Origin: an uncultured Bacteriovoracaceae bacterium
GTDB lineage: Bacteria; Bdellovibrionota; UBA2428
Assembly (NCBI GenBank): GCA_964538275.1
Contig: CAZIFW010000006.1
Span: forward strand, 5,826-69,825
DNA: 64,000 nt
Direction: 5' to 3'
The translations under genes were made by a program, and so were the position numbers. Every line of letters begins with the position of its first letter. The first letter of the stretch is position 1. The notes beneath the pieces are model-generated. The model saw only the letters and a list, made by a program, of their open reading frames with translations. It was not told the origin of the DNA and ran no database searches. Below, in pieces: positions 1 to 9,540 of this stretch.

Positions 1-601
1 AGGTGATCACGCGAGCTGCAAATGTAGAAGCATTGAAGCTGTGTTCTGCATAGAGAGTAAGTGAAGCATCAAATGCTTTTACGATGTCTTTGTGCGGAAC
101 TTCGCCAAAGCACATGTGAAAAAAGTTTTCTGCAAAAGATAAATCTTCGCGAGGTTCAATTATTTTTAAACCTTTTTTAATGCGGTAATCGTAAGCAATA
201 AGAGTGGGTGTTTTTGCAAGCAGGTTTAGTGACTTGTCGTAGTTTGTTTTGGGGCTGTTGTCCCAAATGCGCTCATCTTCAAGTCCGAGGTAGCTAACGC
301 CTGTGCGTACTGTGTCCATGGGGTGAGAGTGTTTAGGGTAAAGTTCAATCACCTTTTGGCAGTTTGCAGAAATTTTTCTGCGGCTACGTTCGGTTTTTTG
401 AAATTCTTCGAGTTGGGCTTTTGTTGGAAGTTCGCCGTGCCACATGAGGTAAGCAACTTCTTCGAAAGTACATTGATCAGCTAAGTCTTGAACAGGGTAA
501 CCGTGATAAACAAGGGCATTGATATCAGGCATAACTTTACTGATAGCGGTATCATCAACAACAACACCTTCGAGACCTTTTTTTACAATTGTTTCGCTCA
601 T
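1..601 (-). CDS. prpC: Citrate synthase family, probably 2-methylcitrate synthase. Only the N-terminal ~200 aa are in the window; the gene runs off the 5' edge.
   Basis: My own reverse-strand translation from the ATG at 599-601 gives MSETIVKKGLEGVVVDDTAISKVMPDINALVYHGYPVQDLADQCTFEEVAYLMWHGELP..., a typical citrate-synthase N-terminus. This ORF is not in the supplied track because it has no stop in the window. The prpC call follows from the neighbouring prpB and prpD. Confidence 0.75.
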   Translation of the reverse strand, partial: MSETIVKKGLEGVVVDDTAISKVMPDINALVYHGYPVQDLADQCTFEEVAYLMWHGELPTKAQLEEFQKTERSRRKISANCQKVIELYPKHSHPMDTVRTGVSYLGLEDERIWDNSPKTNYDKSLNLLAKTPTLIAYDYRIKKGLKIIEPREDLSFAENFFHMCFGEVPHKDIVKAFDASLTLYAEHSFNASTFAARVIT

Positions 602-742
602 ATGGCACGAAAGCCTATCCGAAGAGCCGCATTTGAAAAAGTGCAAAAAAGCAGGACTTGTCGAAAAGCTTCAAAACTGCGCTATCCCTGTATTGAATTG
701 ACCTTAAAGTTTGAGGTAGCTCCGCTACCTTTTTACCAGCTA

Positions 743-1237
743 TTATTTATGCGACTGGTCTAAGAGTGGAGTGTTGTCTATAGGAGTGGTGGGAGGAGTT
801 TTGGGGCCATTTTCAATTTTATTGAGTTCTTCTTTTTCAAAAATGTTGATAACGCGGTTGTCTCTTTTGGCTCTTAATTCTGCTTCTAGTTCAGGTTTTC
901 CTTGTTCTAGGTAATCCAGTTCTGAAGCCTCCAGGTCACTCAGCCCTTTTTCGTACTTTTTTGCAGCCAGTAGAGCTTCGCGTTGAGTACCGCCCCTTTT
1001 AAGTACGGCAAGTTCAGCTTCTTGTGCGGGGCTTTTGTACTTTGTGCTCATAAGCTTTAGAATTCGATTCTTCTTTTTAAAATCAGCGGCCATATTGGAA
1101 AGTACGGCAGATTCAGAGCTAGTATTCGCCTCAGTGCTATTGTTGGAATTAGAGATTTTTTGTCTCGAAGAGCAGTTTACTAAGAATAATATAGAGATAA
1201 AGAGCAAAGCCCGCATAAAAATAAGGATACCGGACAA
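743..1237 (-). CDS. Hypothetical lipoprotein, 164 aa.
   Basis: Signal peptide ending in the lipobox LVNC|SS. Ser/Asn-rich linker followed by a charged helical region. No recognisable domain. Confidence 0.5.
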   Translation of the reverse strand: MSGILIFMRALLFISILFLVNCSSRQKISNSNNSTEANTSSESAVLSNMAADFKKKNRILKLMSTKYKSPAQEAELAVLKRGGTQREALLAAKKYEKGLSDLEASELDYLEQGKPELEAELRAKRDNRVINIFEKEELNKIENGPKTPPTTPIDNTPLLDQSHK

Positions 1238-1339
1238 ATTCTTAAGCCGCTACAAACTTTGTTTTGTGTAGCATTCTGCAACGATTGTAAAGAGAAATTG
1301 CCTGGAGCGTTATAAGTTAAAGTTTTAGGGTAACTTCTT

Positions 1340-1837
1340 ATGTCGTTATCGTTCAAAGCTAAGCTTTTTTGTTTGTCTCTTTTTTTACCTACATTCATTT
1401 TTGCAAAAGATTTTGTCGTGAATGATTTAAAAAAACTCTCAGTGGAATTAACTAACGTCAAAGCCATTCATACTCTTAAGACTATACAGGGCACAGAGCT
1501 AAAACTTGTGGAAGTATATTTTGATGGAGTTATGCCCGTTGCTAATTTATATCTCATGACGGCTAGTAGAGAAAATATACAAAAAATCTGGGAAATACCC
1601 ACAACTGTATCCAGCATAACAAGTATTAAAGCAGAAGCGCTTGTAGGCGAAGATTTAAGTACAAACATTATTATTACTGGAACAAAACTCAAAAATAGTG
1701 TGGGTCCAGTTTTTCGTAATATCTCTATAAATATTCTTATCAGAGAAAATGATCATGCTTACGTCGTAGAAGGAAGAACGGTCACCGATAAAACAATTCC
1801 TTGGCCAAGTTCTGAGTTACAAGGAAGTATTAACTAA
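1340..1837 (+). CDS. Hypothetical secreted protein, 165 aa.
   Basis: N-terminal signal peptide (…FLPTFIFA|KD). Its end is convergent with, and overlaps, the 3' end of prpB. No known domain. Confidence 0.45.
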   Translation: MSLSFKAKLFCLSLFLPTFIFAKDFVVNDLKKLSVELTNVKAIHTLKTIQGTELKLVEVYFDGVMPVANLYLMTASRENIQKIWEIPTTVSSITSIKAEALVGEDLSTNIIITGTKLKNSVGPVFRNISINILIRENDHAYVVEGRTVTDKTIPWPSSELQGSIN

Positions 1838-2727
1838 ACCTTAAAATTAAAAAGGTTTTGGTCAAAATTGTTGTACTGATCGTATTCCAAAACCTCATAG
1901 AGTCTTTTGCGAGTTTGCATAGTGTCTAACAATCCCTCTTGGGTGCCTTTTTCGTGGATTTCTTTGAGACCCTTTTCAATAGCGCCCATCGCAATTCGGA
2001 AAGTGGTCATGGGGTAAATCACCATGTTGTAACCAAGGTTCGTGAGTTCAGTTGTAGTGAAAAGTCTAGATTTTCCAAACTCTGTCATGTTTGCAAGTAA
2101 CGGAACCTTGACTTCTTTTCTGAAGACTTCAAATTCTTTTTCGTTCGCTAAGGCTTCAGGAAAAATCATGTCTGCGCCAGCATCTACATATGCTTTAGCG
2201 CGTTCAATAGCTTTTTCTAAGCCTTCAACTCCGCGCGCATCTGTACGGGCACAAATTACAAAATCTGGGTTGCGACGACTTTTAGCAGCCGCGGCAATTT
2301 TTTGAACCATAGCTTGAACGCTTACAAGATCTTTGTTGTCCAAGTGGCCACAGCGCTTGGGGTTGATTTGGTCTTCGATGTGGCAAGAGCTAATTCCTGC
2401 ATCTTCCAACTCGCGTATACTACGAGCAGCGTTCATGGTTTCACCAAAACCTGTATCGGCATCAATCATTGTAGGAAGATTTGTACAGCGTGCTATATAT
2501 CGACCACGCTCAGTTACTTCGGAGAGAGTGGTTAACCCAATATCGGGAAAACCTAGGTCGTTAGAGATTCCTGCGCCAGAGATATAAACCCCTTCAAACT
2601 GTAGTTTTTCAACCATCAGGGCAATGTACGGAGACCATGCACCCACAAAGCGTTGAAGCTTGCCCGAAGCCAATGCTTTTTTAAGGTTAGGTTTTTGATT
2701 GTTGGAATCACGTACAAGCCATGTCAT
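1834..2727 (-). CDS. prpB: 2-Methylisocitrate lyase (PEP mutase / isocitrate lyase superfamily).
   Basis: Full-length match to PrpB-type enzymes: …GAWSPYIALMVEKLQFEGVYISGAGISNDLGFPDIGL…KRCGH…ICARTDA…. Confidence 0.9.
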   Translation of the reverse strand: MTWLVRDSNNQKPNLKKALASGKLQRFVGAWSPYIALMVEKLQFEGVYISGAGISNDLGFPDIGLTTLSEVTERGRYIARCTNLPTMIDADTGFGETMNAARSIRELEDAGISSCHIEDQINPKRCGHLDNKDLVSVQAMVQKIAAAAKSRRNPDFVICARTDARGVEGLEKAIERAKAYVDAGADMIFPEALANEKEFEVFRKEVKVPLLANMTEFGKSRLFTTTELTNLGYNMVIYPMTTFRIAMGAIEKGLKEIHEKGTQEGLLDTMQTRKRLYEVLEYDQYNNFDQNLFNFKV

Positions 2728-2797
2728 ATGGCTCAGTAATCTAGCAGAGAGAGTCTTGTAGCAAAAGGCCCCGCTTTGGGCTTCTAAAGGCTTAGAC

Positions 2798-5700
2798 TTA
2801 CTGAGCTAATGCAGCTTTACATTTAAAGAAGCCAGGGATTGAGCTAGGGCTGGAGGAATTTCTAATCCTAATGTCACGAGATCCTGGTGCAGCTACAAAA
2901 ACTTTGGGATCTTCACTTGTATAACTCGCTAGATTTTTTTCTAAGAGTCTAATGTGTTCTTTTTGAGCCTCAATCTGTGAGTCGATAGTAGCCTTTTGAA
3001 ACTCGGTGAGGGTTCCATTATTCTTGTGCTGCTCAAGAACTCCTAACTCGCGTTGTGCAGTATCGAGTTTTCTTTGAAGTTCTTCTCTTCGGTTGTCGTA
3101 GTTGTCGGAAATTTGTTTATCGGTACGAAGTGCGTGCATCGCATGAACATTTGCCTGCGGAACTAAAACGGATCGTACTTTTTTAAGCAGAGCTATCTTT
3201 GCTAAAAGTTCATCCGTAGCTGAGCTTTCATCATGGTAAGCAATGGCGTGGTTAACAAAAGCCAAAGCTTTGCTGTTGAGAGAGGGGTTGTCTTCTGTTT
3301 TTTTCATAAGCTCATTTAGAGTGGCTTTACGTAATTCCGTACTTTCTGCTTGATACAATTCTGCAGGATTGCTTCGTGGAGGAATTCCAAGGGCTACTTG
3401 CAGACTTTCAATCAGCCAAATTTCTGCGAAAATTTTTGAACTCAGTTTAGTATCTGCAATTCGAGTTTTTATTTTTTTCATGTAAGCACTGTTTTCTTTA
3501 TCAGCACTTTTTAAAAGTTCCTGTTGAGTAGCGCTAAGGTTGTCTTTGTCTTCACGCATGTCAGCTGCCCATTCCTTAAACTTAGCGTTGATGAATACAA
3601 TAGCATTAGGGTTTTCTTTTATAAGTGCAGCTAATTCCTGTTGATTGCCCCTTCTCCAAACCGAATATAGGTCATCTTGGTCTACTGAGTGGGCTTTCCT
3701 AATGTTTGAAGCCACAACTTCTAAATGGTCGTCTTCGTAAAACGTGGGGATTCCTCTCCATACGGGGCCCGTTTCAGATTCTGCTCTCACGTCAGAAGCT
3801 ACTCTTTGAACGTCACCTTCAATACTATCAAGAGCACTTTTAACGAAAGCTAAGTCTTGGCGAAACTCATTTGAAAGTATATTTATACTTAATTTTTTTT
3901 CACTGAGTTCTTGATTTTTTCTTTCAAGAATATCTTGTATCGCAATAGCGTTCAAAGAATCGCTTTCAATAGCAGCCTCAAGTTTTACTGTGCTCTTTTC
4001 TTTGATGGCCTCTTCTACAACTCTACTCATAGCCTCACGGCGTTCTTTGGAGGCTTGGCTTAGTTGAAAGCTCACAACTTCGCTTAGGTCTGCTCTTCCT
4101 GAAACAGTGATGGGATTTGAAAGATCGGGAGTTGTTTCTAATAGGCGTTTGGGGTCGTAATTGCCCACAAAGGAATTCAATGCGTCCTGCGCTATGGTTG
4201 CATTGTTGGTGTGTCTTTGAATATCGGCCGCAGAATTTTCATTAAAATGTTCTCCAGCAGCTAGAGAGCGTTCATTTGCTTGGGTGTTTGCTTCTGCCTC
4301 GCGACGTCGGATGAACTCATCGCGTGTTCTTTGTGTGGGAGTCATGTGATCTTCTGGAGCTCGAACAAAACCCTCAATCCGTGCAGCACGATCCAAAGCT
4401 ACTTGACGAGCGCTTGTTTGGTTGTCGTCACGATTCGCTTGAAGTATTTTTGGAGAGTCTTCTTCAAAGGTTTTAACTTCGGCAAGAAGTGAACGTGTGC
4501 GTTCTTTTTGAGTATTTGCCATTGTTTTAGCTTCTGTCTCAAGGCGAGTGAGTCTTTCGGCGGGTTTGTAGCCTAAAATTCTTTCTTTCACATGTGTAAC
4601 TTCTGCTTTAGCTGCAGCTTCTTCTTTAGCAAGAGTCTCGTTTAAAGATCTAGCTTCTGCGAGTTGTTGCTTTAGTCTTTCACTGGCTAATTTGGGAATT
4701 CTTTCTGCAAGTTTGCTGTGAGCTTCAAGAGCTACAAGCTTAACTTTATTTTGAGCAACTTTAGCAGCTGCTTGAGTATGAATTTTTTCTTTTTCTGCAA
4801 GAAGTGTCCACGCCTCTTTTTCGTAATCGCTCATATTTGTTGTACTGAGGTACCTGTTGACGGTGCTTGTTGATGGTTTTCTACCACCATTCAAATAGGG
4901 GATAACGTTTGTACGAAGAGTCTCCATGCTAGTGGCTGTGTCCGTGTGCTTTTTGTATTCGTTGTAAGCTTCAACGGCTTCATCTTTTTTTGCTTTTAAA
5001 ACAGCTGCTTGTTCTTTGCTAAGAGCCTCCTCAGCTTTATTGTTTTCTTTTAGAAAAGCATCTACTTCTGCTACAAGGCCTTGAGCTTTGGTGCGAAGTG
5101 CTTTGCTCACTTTGTATTCTAGTTCTGTGCGAGCCTCTTCTGCGGCTTTCATTGCAAAAGCAAGGTCATTTTGATTTTTAGCGAGTTCAGCTTGTAGAAC
5201 TCCAAGTGAATTTCTGCGTACTTTTTGGTATTTGATTTTTATAATGTCTCCCAAGGCAGAAAAACGAACATTAAAACCTGCATCCTCTAAGCGATTTTGC
5301 ATCCAACTAAATTTTGTTCTCAGATCAGCGATTTTAGCGTCGAGTTCAGCGAGTTCAGCACGAGCCAAGCCGTGTGGAGTTTGAGCTAAGGCCTTTCTTC
5401 TAGCTTCCATTTTGTTCATAAGCTTGTAAGCGCCTTGGAGTAGTAAGAATGTTGTTCCAAGCATTCCGCTTGCAATCGCTAACATGAGTCCGTTACTAAG
5501 AGCTGGATCCTCGTCTTCAATTTCTATCTCTAGATCATTGAGAGTTTCATTCGCAATAAGTTCTTGTTTTGTTTCAAGTGCTTTAGGGTCTTCGGGGGTA
5601 GGATTGTTTTGTTGTTTTAGATAAGCTACGAATTCTTCATCCGTCACAATTGTTGCCTTTGGAGCATTGAGAACGGCTTTATCAATTTCTGCTTCTTCTT

Positions 5701-6079
5701 CAGGAGTAAGAGGTATGGCTTTAACAGCTTTAGAGACATCTACCTCTTGGCTGCTTGCTGCGGGAGAAGTAGTTGATGTTGTAGGAGTTGGGCTAGGAGT
5801 TGGAGGGGTGATTGCAAGATTTCTTGCTGGAGGTGTTTCAATAATTTTTGGAGCTTCTGACGCTGGGCTTGGAGTTGTTGAGGCATCCTTTTTCTTAGAC
5901 TTGAACAATCGGTCTAAGAGGCCAACCTTTGGTTTTTTCTCAGTCTTTGGAGTTGTAGCATCGTCTTTCTTTTTACGTTGAAAAAAACTGATTCCAGGAT
6001 TTGTATCTCTAGCCTGCAAGGGGCTTAATTGACCCACAATAAAGGCTATAAAAAGAACGGTACGTACCAAGCTCTGCAT
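2798..6079 (-). CDS. Very large (1093 aa) secreted or membrane-anchored coiled-coil protein of unknown function.
   Basis: N-terminal signal peptide, a Pro/Thr/Ser/Lys-rich low-complexity linker (TPPTPSPTPTTSTTSPAASS), one hydrophobic TM-like segment (LMLAIASGMLGTTFLLLQGAY), then roughly 850 aa of heptad-like, Ala/Glu/Lys/Leu-rich sequence. It lies between prpD/DUF503 and prpB. Confidence 0.6.
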   Translation of the reverse strand: MQSLVRTVLFIAFIVGQLSPLQARDTNPGISFFQRKKKDDATTPKTEKKPKVGLLDRLFKSKKKDASTTPSPASEAPKIIETPPARNLAITPPTPSPTPTTSTTSPAASSQEVDVSKAVKAIPLTPEEEAEIDKAVLNAPKATIVTDEEFVAYLKQQNNPTPEDPKALETKQELIANETLNDLEIEIEDEDPALSNGLMLAIASGMLGTTFLLLQGAYKLMNKMEARRKALAQTPHGLARAELAELDAKIADLRTKFSWMQNRLEDAGFNVRFSALGDIIKIKYQKVRRNSLGVLQAELAKNQNDLAFAMKAAEEARTELEYKVSKALRTKAQGLVAEVDAFLKENNKAEEALSKEQAAVLKAKKDEAVEAYNEYKKHTDTATSMETLRTNVIPYLNGGRKPSTSTVNRYLSTTNMSDYEKEAWTLLAEKEKIHTQAAAKVAQNKVKLVALEAHSKLAERIPKLASERLKQQLAEARSLNETLAKEEAAAKAEVTHVKERILGYKPAERLTRLETEAKTMANTQKERTRSLLAEVKTFEEDSPKILQANRDDNQTSARQVALDRAARIEGFVRAPEDHMTPTQRTRDEFIRRREAEANTQANERSLAAGEHFNENSAADIQRHTNNATIAQDALNSFVGNYDPKRLLETTPDLSNPITVSGRADLSEVVSFQLSQASKERREAMSRVVEEAIKEKSTVKLEAAIESDSLNAIAIQDILERKNQELSEKKLSINILSNEFRQDLAFVKSALDSIEGDVQRVASDVRAESETGPVWRGIPTFYEDDHLEVVASNIRKAHSVDQDDLYSVWRRGNQQELAALIKENPNAIVFINAKFKEWAADMREDKDNLSATQQELLKSADKENSAYMKKIKTRIADTKLSSKIFAEIWLIESLQVALGIPPRSNPAELYQAESTELRKATLNELMKKTEDNPSLNSKALAFVNHAIAYHDESSATDELLAKIALLKKVRSVLVPQANVHAMHALRTDKQISDNYDNRREELQRKLDTAQRELGVLEQHKNNGTLTEFQKATIDSQIEAQKEHIRLLEKNLASYTSEDPKVFVAAPGSRDIRIRNSSSPSSIPGFFKCKAALAQ

Positions 6080-6235
6080 GCCTACAGTTTATCGATCTTT
6101 GAGGTCTCAGCTTGCGTTAAATCAGCATTAAAAGCATTTTTATTCGTATCTAGCAAAATACAGGTGTTAAAATATTAAACAGATCTTAACAGTCTAGCGC
6201 CTTATAAAACGAGTTGGCATGTGCCTATAAGCTGT

Positions 6236-6526
6236 TTAGTCAAAGCGCTGAAATTCTGTGTCTTCGCTCACAACTCGGGCTGCAGAGTTTTTATCTACAA
6301 ACTCTAAAAGCTTTTGCATATGTTTTTGAGCGTTTTCTAAATCTACTGAACAAAAAGCAAGGCCTACTTCGCATTTCTCTAAATCTGCAAAACTGCCCAC
6401 TTCGCTAAGATATAAACGGTGTTGTCTTTGGAGTTTGTCTGAAAGAGTTTCTATGAGTCTACGTTTTTCTTTTAAGTCTTCGTTGCCCCAGAAATCCAAA
6501 ATTATTTTGGCTGAGGCAACGATCAT
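6236..6526 (-). CDS. DUF503 family protein (YlxP-like), 96 aa.
   Basis: MIVASAKIILDFWGNEDLKEKRRLIETLSDKLQRQHRLYLSEVGSFADLEKCEVGLAFCSVD… follows the DUF503 consensus (…LkeKR.iv…rlr..fn.svaEv…lwqra.iG.a.vs.d…). It starts 17 nt after the prpD stop. Confidence 0.7.
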   Translation of the reverse strand: MIVASAKIILDFWGNEDLKEKRRLIETLSDKLQRQHRLYLSEVGSFADLEKCEVGLAFCSVDLENAQKHMQKLLEFVDKNSAARVVSEDTEFQRFD

Positions 6527-6543
6527 TTGTTTTCCTACTAAAA

Positions 6544-8055
6544 TTAAAAAATTCCGCGAGTGTCGCGAGTTGCTTTTTCAAGTTTGTTTACGGGGACTGT
6601 TACGTTTAATTGGCAAATATCTTCCCAGCTAAGTGTAGGGAGTTTTTCAATAAGGGCCAAGAAACGATCTTGTTCTGCAGGGTCAACAATTCCAGTCGTA
6701 AGAGTTTTAAACTTGTGAACATAGTTAGGACGCGTGAATGGTTTTGCTCCAGCAGGGTGTGCGTTTGCGCGTGCCAATTCGTCTACAATCTTTTCGCCAT
6801 TCTTAAGTTTTATTTCTACGCGAGCTCCGAACGCTTTTTTAGCAGGATCCGAATCGTGGTAGCGTTTTGTCCATTCAGCATCTTCTTGGGTAGAAATTTT
6901 ATTCCAAAGTGCAACAGTTGTAGGACGATTTGCTCTTTCTGGAGTGTAGCTGTCAACGTGGTGCCAAGTTCCATCTTCAAGCGCAACTGCGAAGATATAC
7001 ATAATGCTATGATCAAGAGTTTCGCGAGATGCTTTGGGGTCAAACTTTTGAGGATCGTTTGCTCCTGTTCCAATGACGTAGTGAGTGTGGTGACTGGTGT
7101 GAAGAACAACGGATTCAATCTCGCTTACATTTTTTACGCGTTCACGCATTTTGAATGCAAGGTCGATAAGAGCTTGCGCTTGATATTCCGCAGAGTGTTC
7201 TTTGGTATAAGTTTCAAGAATGGCGCGTTTAGCTTCGCCTAGTTCAGGCAAGGGTACGTCGTAACTCGCTTTAGGGCCGTCGAGCATCCAGCTAATGACA
7301 GAATCTTCTCCTTCGTAAATGGGAGAGGGGCTTTTCTCTCCGCGCATCGCACGGTCTACGGCTTCTACAGCGAGTTTAGTTCCGTGAGCAGGAGCATAAG
7401 CTTTCCAACTAGAAATTTCGCCTTTGCGCGACTGACGAGTAGCAAATGCAACGTGCACCGCTTGTTGAATCGCTTGATAAGTTACTTCGGTGCTGAGTCC
7501 TAGCATGGTGCAAATTCCCGCAGCACATGCAGGCGCTAAGTGAGCGATGTGATCTTTTTTGTGCTGGTGCAAGCAAATTGCTTTTACAAGATTTACATGA
7601 AGTTCATAAGCAGTTGCGATACCTCTTAAGAGATCGGCACCATTTTTTCCGGTTTGTTGTGCCACTGCTACAAGAGCTGGGATGCTGTCGCCAGGGTGAG
7701 AGTAGTCAGCCGCTAGAAAGGTGTCGTGCATGTCGAGTTCGCGAACGGCGGTGCCGTTAGCCCATGTTGCCCATTCCGCATCAAATTTTTGATCGTTTGA
7801 AACTCCAAAAACTGTTGCGCCTTTAGTGCGTGGATGTGCGAGTGCTTGAGTTCTTGCGTTGGCAACAGGTGTGCGATTGATGGCAGCGAGTGCGACAGAA
7901 GCGTTGTCGATCATTCGGTTTCCAATCATTTCTACCACTTCAGGAATGAGAGCTACGGGATCTGTTGCAACCACAGCCATTTTCCATGCAAGTTGATTTT
8001 CGCGAGAAAGAGGAACTTTTGACGGATAAACTTTTACATTATGAAGCTTCATATG
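6544..8055 (-). CDS. prpD: 2-Methylcitrate dehydratase (MmgE/PrpD family).
   Basis: Full-length MmgE/PrpD similarity. The track ORF extends to 8106. I prefer the internal start [10 protein letters not shown]… at 8055 because the first 17 codons look like overextension. Confidence 0.8.
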
Positions 8056-8251
8056 GCTCTTTTGTAGCTGAGAGTCAGCAGCCCTGCAAATGAACAAAGG
8101 TGCCATGTTCCATTGCTAACTTGCTTACTACGATGCTTGGGTTGAGCTCTAAGGCTTAAGTGCCACTCTGAAGCTTTGTGCACATAGTCATTCGCAGTAT
8201 AAGTCTTAAGCTTGGGGTGTCCCCACTGCCAGCAGTTGCTAAGATAAGAGT

Positions 8252-8734
8252 GTGCTGCAACGACTCGCTGTGTTTTTCCTTTTGTTCGCCTCGTGTTCGA
8301 TAAGTGGTCCTCTGCGTGAAGATCGCTCTGCAGCGAATTACTTTTTCCCGGCGCCTCAAACATCGTGGACTAAACTTAATCCTACTGAGGGGATAGAGAT
8401 TCTATACCAAGATAAAAAAGGCGCGCTCTTGAGCGTAAGCTCAATTTGCGGTCGCTATGAAGAAGCGAGTTTAGAAACACTTGCGCGATCGGCACTTTCT
8501 CCCATCGTTGCATTCAAAGATAAAAATATAACGACGTTTCAATTGGATGGACGTGAGGCTTTTCAAATTTTTGGTGAAGGCAAGGTTGATGGAGTGCCTG
8601 TGCAAATTGATTTTGTAGCTTGGCGCAAAGACGATTGTCTTTTTGATTTTTCAGTACAAGCTTCTCCTACACTACAGGCACAATCGAGGGCGGATTTTCT
8701 TAATATGCTTAAGAAGTTCCGATATCCACAGTGA
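8252..8734 (+). CDS. Hypothetical lipoprotein, 160 aa. First gene of the mla operon.
   Basis: Lipobox LFASC|S. Its stop overlaps the mlaE start (8731), which suggests translational coupling. Confidence 0.5.
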   Translation: MLQRLAVFFLLFASCSISGPLREDRSAANYFFPAPQTSWTKLNPTEGIEILYQDKKGALLSVSSICGRYEEASLETLARSALSPIVAFKDKNITTFQLDGREAFQIFGEGKVDGVPVQIDFVAWRKDDCLFDFSVQASPTLQAQSRADFLNMLKKFRYPQ

Positions 8735-9537
8735 GAGCCGTTTTAAACTGGAAGAAGAATGTATTCTTCAGTGTTCGTGATTTGCTATTAGAAATAGGCT
8801 CGTATTCCATGATGGTAGCGCAAAGTGCGCGCGTTTGGATGCGTCGTCCTCCGAGTCTTAGTCAGCTCACCTACGAAATTAATACTCTTGGAGTACAATC
8901 ATTTTTAATTGTATTCGTTGCGGCTTTATCAACGGGTTTGGTTTTAGCAATTCAATTTGGTTTTGGTCTCGAACGTTTCGGGGCGAAATATTATGTTCCA
9001 AAAATTGTCGCTATCTCTATCTGTCGTGAGTTGGGTCCTATCTTTACTGCTCTTATGTTGGCTGGGCGAGTGGGTGCCGGTATGGCAGCAGAAATTGCTT
9101 CTATGAAAGTGACCCAACAAATTGATGCAATCCGTGCGTTAGGAACTGATCCCATTCAAAAAGTTGTAGCGCCAAAAATTGTTGCACTCATGATAGCAAC
9201 GCCTTTTTTAACATTGCTTGCCGATATGGTGGGTATCTTTGGGGGCATGCTTGCTTCCTCTTCTCAGTTAGGCCTAGCGCCCCATGATTACTTTTTTAAG
9301 TCATTTGAAATTATCACTTGGCGCGATGTGAGTGGTGGTTTGATAAAAGGCTTAGTTTTTGGATTCATTATAGCTTCTGTGAGTTGTCATGAGGGAATGA
9401 ATGCCAAAGGTGGTACCTTGGGTGTGGGGCTGGCAACCACCAATGCCGTAGTAAAGTCTTCAATTGTTGTTTTAATCTTCGATTTTATTTTAACAAAACT
9501 TCTCTGGCTCGCCGAGCACGCGTTGACAAAGGGTTGA
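8731..9537 (+). CDS. mlaE: Phospholipid/ABC transporter permease MlaE.
   Basis: Multi-TM MlaE/YrbE family sequence: …LGVQSFLIVFVAALSTGLVLAIQ…ICRELGPIFTALMLAGRVGAGMAAEI…. Confidence 0.85.
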   Translation: MRAVLNWKKNVFFSVRDLLLEIGSYSMMVAQSARVWMRRPPSLSQLTYEINTLGVQSFLIVFVAALSTGLVLAIQFGFGLERFGAKYYVPKIVAISICRELGPIFTALMLAGRVGAGMAAEIASMKVTQQIDAIRALGTDPIQKVVAPKIVALMIATPFLTLLADMVGIFGGMLASSSQLGLAPHDYFFKSFEIITWRDVSGGLIKGLVFGFIIASVSCHEGMNAKGGTLGVGLATTNAVVKSSIVVLIFDFILTKLLWLAEHALTKG

Positions 9538-9540
9538 TCG

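Follow-up and report, generated by a model that had tools for sequence, protein, structure and literature searches.

The window analysed here, by which we mean the whole stretch of 64,000 nucleotides (nt) taken from contig CAZIFW010000006.1 of an uncultured Bacteriovoracaceae bacterium (assembly GCA_964538275.1), carries the genes for three enzymes of the methylcitrate cycle, and these genes are interleaved with others, the largest of which encodes a protein of 1093 amino acids that we call CC. All three enzyme genes lie on the minus strand: prpD (6544..8052) for 2-methylcitrate dehydratase, prpB (1834..2727) for methylisocitrate lyase, and prpC (1..601) for 2-methylcitrate synthase, a gene that is cut by the edge of the window after its first 200 codons. 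As the original prediction had stated, the three are not contiguous; their open reading frames (ORFs) are present where it had placed them and match the profiles of the respective enzymes. It had likewise described correctly what lies between them. The 3.8 kb that separate prpD from prpB hold a gene for a DUF503 (YlxP-like) protein of 96 residues (6236..6526, minus strand; PF04456 match) and the 3.3-kb CC gene (2798..6079, minus strand). Within the 1.2 kb from prpB to prpC lie orf165, a plus-strand gene (1340..1837) for 165 residues with a signal-peptide-like N-terminus, and a minus-strand gene (743..1216) for a lipoprotein-like orphan of 157 residues. On the minus strand, prpD is followed by the DUF503 gene after 17 nt, the DUF503 gene by CC after 156 nt and CC by prpB after 70 nt, while 141 nt separate the lipoprotein-like ORF and prpC; orf165 converges with prpB, and the stop codons of the two overlap by a few bases. 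With two gaps of this size and a convergent gene between its members, the cluster does not have the contiguity of a methylcitrate-cycle operon. Neither prpE nor a gene for a PrpR-type regulator was found adjoining it, an Rfam scan and a tRNA scan of the whole window yielded no matches, and checks for tandem and flanking repeats gave nothing relevant.

The three enzymes are readily identified. PrpB scores 432.9 bits on TIGR02317 (equivalog cut-off 354.4) and covers profile positions 4-284 of 285. The 200 residues of PrpC encoded in the window match the Pfam family Citrate_synt and reach 291 bits on their NCBIfam model, and the full-length protein of 375 amino acids, which the identical contig L001 supplies, has scores of 609 bits on NF010636 (cut-off 479) and 512 bits on TIGR01800 (cut-off 421). 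PrpD possesses both Pfam domains of the MmgE/PrpD family (PF03972, 205 bits; PF19305, 145 bits) and is of the actinobacterial type, with 829 bits on NF042438, the model for PrpD of high-GC Gram-positive bacteria (equivalog cut-off 950), and 91 bits on the enterobacterial model TIGR02330 (cut-off 458). Since both scores remain under the equivalog cut-offs, the name prpD rests on family membership and on the linkage with prpB and prpC. The order D-B-C is also that of the prpDBC operons of Corynebacterium glutamicum. In Salmonella enterica and Escherichia coli, the same chemistry of PrpB, PrpC and PrpD is encoded by prpBCDE operons with another gene order, and the enterobacterial PrpD model fits the PrpD of the window poorly. 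The start of prpD, previously set at 8055 within an ORF reaching to 8106, is the ATG at 8052 (MKLHN...), because the region upstream of it is kept as non-coding DNA in relatives and gene callers use this ATG.

The prp genes evolve with dN/dS ratios of 0.014-0.021; PrpB (dN/dS 0.014) is 99% identical to its counterpart in L004, a related genome described below, and PrpD is 98% identical to the proteins of L004 and of a second relative, L087. Such very strong purifying selection implies that the methylcitrate pathway is presumably intact. PrpC would then condense propionyl-CoA and oxaloacetate to 2-methylcitrate, PrpD would convert this compound into 2-methyl-cis-aconitate, an aconitase encoded elsewhere would provide 2-methylisocitrate, and PrpB would release pyruvate and succinate from it.

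A chimeric contig or spurious ORFs might be suspected behind so unusual an arrangement, as the source assembly appears to be derived from a metagenome and orf165 has a low GC content. However, three Logan assemblies, independent of one another, contain the interleaved locus in identical form, and diverged forms of it are present in a JGI contig, in an NCBI metagenome-assembled genome (MAG) and in a fourth Logan contig; moreover, every inserted ORF either shows purifying selection or has homologues. We therefore regard an artefact of assembly or annotation as hardly conceivable.

Distribution of the interleaved arrangement

For comparison, the proteins of the window were searched by tblastn against 81 loci with a related prpD, and profiles (hidden Markov models) of the inserted proteins were run against every ORF of 87 loci plus the window. 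In a scan of 185,579 species-representative genomes, which do not include the genome of the window itself, the closest PrpD proteins stem from MAGs of Bdellovibrionota, Bacteriovoracaceae and Bacteriovoracia and are at most 82% identical. Of 62 loci, 51 have no more than 150 nt between prpD and prpB, and of 47 loci, 36 have no more than 200 nt between prpB and prpC. Where the cluster is compact in this way, an AGGAG-type Shine-Dalgarno sequence precedes prpD and the ATG of prpB typically abuts the stop codon of prpD. The compact clusters of other Bdellovibrionota (for example L007, L008, L011, L019 and L043, the latter from Pseudobdellovibrio) share with the window the three enzymes, the D-B-C order on one strand and an actinobacterial, NF042438-like PrpD; they have gaps of 3-100 nt, often a prpB ATG on the prpD stop codon and a Shine-Dalgarno sequence before prpD, whereas the window has gaps of 3.8 and 1.2 kb, no Shine-Dalgarno sequence before any prp gene, and an 8-mer, GCCATATG, at the prp start codons. 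In the nearest outgroup, L007 (PrpD 76% identical), prpD, prpB and prpC are separated by 3 and 39 nt and followed by QueH, and QueH is also found 3' of the cluster in the lineage of the window. Because the compact arrangement is the norm among the related loci and is present in L007 with the same QueH neighbour, compact prpD-prpB-prpC appears to be the ancestral state.

The interleaved layout is confined to a clade of four genomes, namely that of the window and L004, L085 and L087. L004, a JGI contig whose PrpD is 98% identical, has the order prpD-DUF503-CC-prpB-lipoprotein-prpC without orf165; L087, a Logan contig (PrpD 98%), has prpD-DUF503-CC and ends inside CC; and L085, the NCBI MAG GCA_041391385.1 (PrpD 89%), has prpD-CC-prpB-lipoprotein-prpC and lacks both DUF503 and orf165. 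CC thus lies between prpD and prpB in these three relatives of the window and in no other locus compared, and the profile searches recovered no further copies of CC, of the lipoprotein-like gene or of DUF503 at these loci. In L005 and L006 (PrpD 82%), prpD is followed by DUF503, and synteny then breaks into an RluA-like gene, a GDSL lipase gene and a zeta-toxin-like giant gene. The latter, a gene for 1509 residues downstream in L005, was considered as a diverged copy of CC and dismissed, as its product is a zeta-toxin/phosphoesterase protein. Insertion events, one of the two explanations put forward originally, are supported by this synteny: the compact state is common, the inserts are restricted to the four-genome clade, and orf165 to the genome of the window. 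An interleaving that is ancestral and widespread, with inserts of known function, would have spoken against them, and the layout is found in four genomes only.

The clade is syntenic over more than 20 kb, from genes for an M32 peptidase and a DHH protein through the Mla genes, the prp cluster and QueH to DUF1304 and a GGDEF gene; it includes, in all clade genomes, the plus-strand block of the divergent lipoprotein gene orf160 and of MlaE, MlaF and MlaD (8252..11086). Since this whole neighbourhood is syntenic, the kept position of the inserts carries little information.

The junctions of the prp cluster are occupied in other lineages as well. In L013 and L023, prpD and prpB flank two small ORFs, and a convergent gene whose 329-residue product is lipoprotein-like lies between prpB and prpC. 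In loci of the Bdellovibrio bacteriovorus type, prpD and prpB are 0.3-0.7 kb apart, and genes on both strands fill the 3-7.4 kb from prpB to prpC; the 7.4 kb are reached in L017 and L044. These interrupted clusters (L016, L017, L022, L044 and L071, together with L013 and L023) resemble the window in that both junctions are occupied by unrelated genes, some of them on the opposite strand and coding for secreted or lipoprotein-like proteins, but none of their inserts is homologous to CC, the lipoprotein-like gene, orf165 or DUF503. The two prp junctions thus look like recurrent landing sites that receive different genes each time. As unrelated genes are hosted there across lineages, an argument for a function of the inserts that is built on their position only is weakened. 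The small overlapping ORFs of L013 (3839-4487) and L023 (4373-5021), which encode 99 and 119 amino acids, resemble by eye a toxin-antitoxin pair of the nucleotidyltransferase/HEPN type.

The inserted genes and their products

CC is an orphan protein. A word-indexed search of 5.8 billion clusters, carried out with the single protein and with a three-sequence profile, returned CC itself and one further protein, P0002; an exhaustive phmmer search of 1.84 billion representatives returned P0002 and P0003 only. These two, 75% and 30% identical to CC, are its sole homologues among approximately 15 billion proteins searched; the third homologue, the fragment in L087 (53% identity), was reached via the neighbouring DUF503 gene. 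NCBI labels the source of P0003 as a Bdellovibrionota bacterium. Two scans of metagenome contigs, one with a full-length and one with a C-terminal alignment, gave nothing for CC, and there was no meaningful match in Pfam (up to E=10), NCBIfam, PHROGs or PADLOC. The 157-residue lipoprotein-like protein likewise has no match in these four collections, and both proteins belong to no described family. CC is nevertheless a real gene under purifying selection: its dN/dS is 0.15 against L004, 0.14 against L087 and 0.30 against L085 (a comparison in which dS is saturated), and its alignment with the L004 protein contains no indel after residue 150. Its dN is 10-25 times that of PrpD. The GC content of CC equals the window mean, which argues against a recent foreign arrival.

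CC is most likely a type-I inner-membrane protein: its signal peptide would be cleaved, a Pro/Thr-rich, disordered tail would reach into the periplasm, and a single transmembrane helix would join this tail to a cytoplasmic helical scaffold of about 875 residues. The signal-peptide-like segment (residues 1-23, 6011..6079, minus strand), found by hydropathy and kept in P0002 and P0003, has its hydrophobic part at residues 3-22 and ends in ...PLQA|R. Residues 24-195 (5495..6010, minus strand) are rich in Pro, Thr, Lys and Glu, with 21 prolines and 20 threonines; they are predicted to be disordered, with a predicted local distance difference test score (pLDDT) below 50, diverge fast (40% identity to L004, with gaps), and would be periplasmic. 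They end in the acidic run EIEIEDEDP, directly before the one predicted transmembrane helix (residues 196-217, 5429..5494, minus strand; Kyte-Doolittle value about 1.6), which is helical in the model and kept in P0003; five basic residues follow it (KLMNKMEARRK). By the positive-inside rule, acidic residues before and basic residues after the helix point to an N-out, C-in topology, and hence to a cytoplasmic location of the all-alpha domain (residues 218-1093, 2801..5428, minus strand).

AlphaFold models of full-length CC and of its C-terminal 434 residues have mean pLDDT values of 62 and 70, respectively, and the full-length model reaches 80-92 over residues 350-550. In the model, a beta-hairpin (269-284) precedes long helices at 289-396, 418-460, 467-502, 506-572 and 581-636, and the C-terminal half (665-1054) consists of shorter helices. 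About 375 residues are found in very long helices, the longest of which spans 108 residues, and a crude heptad scan recovers approximately 190 residues with a strong pattern, above shuffled sequences and far below 850. The architecture first proposed for CC therefore holds in part: the N-terminal hydrophobic segment, the Pro/Thr-rich region and the single hydrophobic helix stand, while the roughly 850 residues of coiled coil were an overestimate, and the envelope location proposed for the large helical domain is at odds with the positive-inside rule. A specific fold is more likely than a featureless rod, given the conserved, non-repetitive motifs YSWxxNRL, PYLNGGxKPS, SEIWLIESLQ and, at the C-terminus, GFxK..C.

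It had been asked at the outset whether CC is an SMC-like or M-protein-like protein or a tether. An all-alpha protein with helices of up to 108 residues, a Pro/Thr-rich spacer and top Foldseek matches to helices of MukB, spectrin and chemoreceptors does recall such classes, but these matches are weak and generic to long helices (E at least 0.07, query-normalised template-modelling (TM) score at most 0.19; MukB E=0.07, TM 0.15). No match of the CC models to PDB entries had an E-value below 0.07, and searches of the PDB by sequence and by profile were empty. The hallmarks of the individual classes are absent too. For an SMC/MukB-like protein, a Walker A motif and a match to SMC_N or any other Pfam family are missing even at E=10. 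For a surface fibril akin to the streptococcal M protein, there is no LPXTG motif, the heptad residues number only about 190 and the host is a diderm. In a TolA/TonB-like envelope spanner, the helical domain would lie opposite to where the charge pattern (acidic before, +5 after the helix) would put that of CC, whose Pro/Thr-rich part stands between the signal peptide and the transmembrane helix. Membership of CC in any of these coiled-coil classes is thus very improbable.

The DUF503 protein scores 48.3 bits on PF04456 (cut-off 22.4) over profile positions 1-85 of 88, and its gene has a dN/dS of 0.026. It is a member of a known family in what appears to be an unusual but conserved partnership with prpD: the pair is found in five genomes (the window, L004, L087, L005 and L006) and is missing in L085. 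In Bacillus subtilis, the DUF503/YlxP member is encoded in the nusA-infB-rbfA operon, a context unlike that of the window, where the gene follows prpD after 17 nt. This pairing hints at a specific partnership of PrpD and DUF503; the papers found on DUF503 and ylxP contain passing mentions and nothing pertinent. Given the short gap and an AGGA Shine-Dalgarno sequence of its own 6 nt before the ATG, the DUF503 gene is probably co-transcribed with prpD. The adjacency of the two genes, with gaps of 7-26 nt, is kept in L005 (11520-11810) and L006 (2501-2791) even though prpB and prpC are no longer nearby.

Orthologues of the lipoprotein-like protein are present in L004 (70% identity) and L085 (49%) only, in both cases between prpB and prpC, and the dN/dS of its gene is 0.12. 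A hydrophobic signal ends in a conserved Cys-Ser-Ser, after which a charged helical region follows. When examined with the lipobox pattern [LVI][ASTVI][GAS]C, all three orthologues have Cys-Ser-Ser after the hydrophobic region, with Asn (window), Ser (L004) or Gln (L085) at position -1, so that the classical pattern fits in L004 only. In L085 (13395-14855), the prpB stop codon is missing; an ORF of 486 codons continues across the spacer into the lipoprotein gene without a change of frame, and no gene is called at this place. The cause may be a genuine loss of the stop or a fusion, or else a sequencing error.

orf165 was seen in the genome of the window but not in L004 or L085 (the L087 contig ends earlier). 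At 0.34, its GC content is below the window mean of 0.415; the single homologue (60% identity) was found on an unrelated contig, L086, among CorA, thymidine kinase and trypsin genes. By these features, orf165 would be a recent insertion specific to the genome of the window. The inserts are lineage-specific and differ in their distributions, and hence were gained at different times. No marks of mobile elements accompany them: integrase genes, tRNA genes, flanking direct or inverted repeats, and matches to PHROGs or PADLOC were all looked for and not found.

Start regions and transcription

The 8-mer GCCATATG occurs three times in the 64 kb, both strands counted, and each occurrence coincides exactly with the start codon of prpD (8050-8057), prpB (2725-2732) or prpC (599-606) on the minus strand. 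More widely, the three starts conform to G[A/T]GCCATATGA and are preceded by a block of the type CTCT...TA(C/G)A; L004 and L087 conserve the motif, and L085 has a similar one. It is missing from the inserted genes, and none of the three prp genes has a Shine-Dalgarno sequence. The start region of prpD (8053..8090, minus strand) comprises TTGCAG, 17 nt, TACAAA (8061-8066), 8 nt and the ATG within GCCATATG; it contains a GACTCTC as found upstream of prpB and is kept in L004, L087 and L085. That of prpB (2728..2760, minus strand) has GACTCTC, then TAGATT (2738-2743) 10 nt before the ATG, then the 8-mer. That of prpC (602..630, minus strand) has a -10-like TAGGCT (612-617), also at 10 nt, and the 8-mer from 606 down to the start codon (601-599). 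The box of prpD, TACAAA at 8 nt, is the weaker one. The inserted genes for CC, the lipoprotein-like protein and orf165 are likewise preceded by -10-like boxes: the lipoprotein-like gene by TATCCT at 7 nt, orf165 by a box at 8 nt, and CC by TAAACT (6086-6091) at exactly 6 nt. The CC box is kept in three genomes at this distance (TAAACT in the window and L004, TAAAAT in L085), and the region between DUF503 and CC (6080..6235, minus strand) also holds a conserved AT-rich inverted-repeat block.

The boxes belong to a wider pattern. Of 58 ORFs of the window, 10 have a TANNNT hexamer exactly 6 nt ahead of the start codon, a sharp peak over a background of some 1.3 per position; in the clade loci L004, L085 and L087, the hexamer stands at this distance in 12 of 49 ORFs. 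No such peak is seen among ORFs from other Bacteriovoracia (1 of 83) or from Bdellovibrio (5 of 102), and in both of these groups Shine-Dalgarno sequences dominate. A TANNNT peak about 6 nt before the start codon is the classic footprint of leaderless mRNAs, and Actinobacteria and Deinococcus are bacteria rich in leaderless genes. The lineage of the window resembles them in the position of the peak and in its weak use of Shine-Dalgarno sequences, a likeness drawn from sequence statistics on about 100 ORFs. This signature suggests that leaderless mRNAs are widespread in the lineage; in the literature on Bdellovibrio and Bdellovibrionota we found no description of such mRNAs.

Further upstream of prpD, in the divergent region between it and orf160, a block (8196..8225, minus strand) kept in L004 and L085 contains a promoter-like GGGACA-16-TATACT, and the perfect palindrome TGGGGACACCCCA (8213-8225) overlaps with it. 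The palindrome may be an operator; one common to the prp genes was considered and rejected, as the palindrome does not recur before the other genes. A consensus scan for promoters and terminators yielded sites no more frequently in the window than in shuffled sequence and no convincing intrinsic terminator in its intergenic regions, and intergenic RNA folds were no stabler than those of shuffles. In L085, the genome without DUF503, a strong 13-bp hairpin, AACAGCCGTCTAG...CTAGACGGCTGTT, lies directly after prpD (9890-9925; region z = -4.6 against shuffles), while its counterpart in the window, at about 6150-6190, is weak and AT-rich.

The original prediction held that the separated prp genes cannot form a single transcript. 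Separate units are plausible from the features of the start regions, but to exclude a common transcript goes beyond the sequence evidence: the co-directional gaps measure 17, 156 and 70 nt, and a convergent gene is no physical block to read-through. It is accordingly conceivable, although we consider it distinctly less probable than separate units, that the locus is still one operon, in which a promoter upstream of prpD drives a transcript through DUF503, CC and prpB and, in the relatives without orf165, on through the lipoprotein gene and prpC, the inserts being passengers. The shared direction and spacing of these genes, the want of a convincing terminator in the window and the conserved promoter-like block upstream of prpD would all fit such a transcript. 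However, conserved -10-like boxes precede CC, prpB, the lipoprotein-like gene and prpC, none of which has a Shine-Dalgarno sequence; the leaderless signature extends across the lineage; L085 has its strong hairpin right after prpD; and orf165 converges on prpB in the genome of the window.

We favor an arrangement in which prpD and DUF503 would form one transcription unit and promoters of their own would serve CC, prpB, orf165 and the lipoprotein-like gene, the last perhaps jointly with prpC. Each prp gene would have lost the Shine-Dalgarno sequence or translational coupling found in its relatives and has at its start a -10-like box with G[A/T]GCCATATGA behind it, a repeated element that could bring about co-regulation in the absence of an operon.

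History of the locus

Building on the gene identities, synteny, rarity, selection and start motifs described above, we suggest that a compact prpDBC operon was pulled apart by the stepwise gain of lineage-specific genes, that the interleaving was tolerated owing to leaderless, gene-by-gene transcription, and that the orphan protein CC is not tied to propionate; we assign this reading a probability of about 0.65. The three methylcitrate genes would descend from the compact operon that most relatives keep. A Shine-Dalgarno-dependent DUF503 gene would have been gained behind prpD, CC between DUF503 and prpB, and the lipoprotein-like orphan between prpB and prpC; the latest gain, seen in the genome of the window only, would be the low-GC gene for a secreted protein of 165 residues on the opposite strand. 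Genes of this lineage would often yield leaderless or near-leaderless mRNAs of their own, so that the prp cluster could have taken up inserts without harm, and the role of CC would be specific to the lineage and not linked to propionate.

Several points weigh against this reading. The transcription units and leaderless starts, like the absence of a metabolic role of the inserts, are inferred, the former from sequence alone. The boxes of prpB and prpC stand 10 nt rather than 6 nt before the ATG, and the TACAAA of prpD is weak, so that the function of the shared element could be neither that of a promoter nor that of an initiator. The topology of CC derives from hydropathy and the positive-inside rule, with a second hydrophobic segment that is borderline (Kyte-Doolittle 1.6), and its models are of modest confidence (pLDDT 62 and 70; predicted TM scores 0.28 and 0.37). 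Despite a divergence to 30% identity, CC has stayed between prpD and prpB, and it co-occurs with the lipoprotein-like gene in the three genomes in which both slots are readable; either fact is compatible with a functional tie. The synteny of L005 and L006 breaks right after DUF503, which settles the order of gains and losses only in part, and the tree of the clade was drawn from the identities of PrpD, MlaE and orf160 only.

These last observations on CC bear on the second explanation offered at the outset, a functional link between propionate metabolism and an envelope coiled-coil protein. In its fuller form, CC, the small lipoprotein and perhaps DUF503 would work together with the methylcitrate enzymes, for example as a membrane scaffold or tether near the envelope, where odd-chain or branched lipids and amino acids derived from prey enter, and selection would keep the genes in the cluster. 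Each of the four genomes with CC does have it between prpD and prpB, CC and the lipoprotein-like gene flank prpB, the genes are on one strand with short gaps, and the prpD-DUF503 adjacency survives in L005 and L006 after the loss of prpB and prpC from the vicinity. Yet the whole region is syntenic, which makes position alone uninformative; the inserts evolve 10-25 times faster than the enzymes and lack the prp start motif; CC has a conserved -10 box of its own; most genomes with this prp cluster have none of these inserts, and unrelated genes occupy the same junctions in other lineages; and no domain in the inserts points to metabolism. With no positive evidence for the link, we consider such a module improbable. 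Slightly more doubtful still is a combined version, in which CC and the small lipoprotein, possibly with DUF503, would form an envelope-anchored scaffold coupled to the methylcitrate enzymes and the prp genes would be co-regulated by the repeated start element (GCCATATG plus the -10-like box) on near-leaderless mRNAs; if true, it would represent a new way to organise a metabolic pathway in a lineage of predatory bacteria. The literature on Bdellovibrio and methylcitrate yielded nothing pertinent.

Under the stepwise-gain reading that we prefer, the enzymes are ordinary, and their arrangement derives from the prpDBC operon as a variant limited to this clade; it looks like the product of ordinary gene gain and not like a demonstrated new system. 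The locus offers a clean and datable case of operon dismantling, in which an ancestral prpDBC was invaded by orphan genes and each enzyme gene has a similar start element. Should the inferred mode of transcription hold, leaderless gene-by-gene transcription relaxes the selection for compact operons, and GCCATATG becomes a candidate for the cis-regulatory signal of a regulon. Two side observations, the start motif of the prp genes and the signature of leaderless mRNAs, are worth following up. CC, for its part, adds to the large, fast-evolving and lineage-restricted membrane proteins of Bdellovibrionota, and the practical significance is modest.

Gene content also varies at other spots of this neighbourhood. 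L087 has a lineage-specific insertion between orf160 and prpD, a gene of the GFA family (7813-8241; glutathione-dependent formaldehyde-activating-like, a weak match). In the window, an orphan ORF for 575 residues and a Methyltransf_11 gene (11230-13767) stand between MlaD and an ADP-ribosyl-exotoxin-like gene (13832-14662); both are missing from the same spot in L004, and L087 has a gene for a VWA-domain protein there, which marks it as another variable position.

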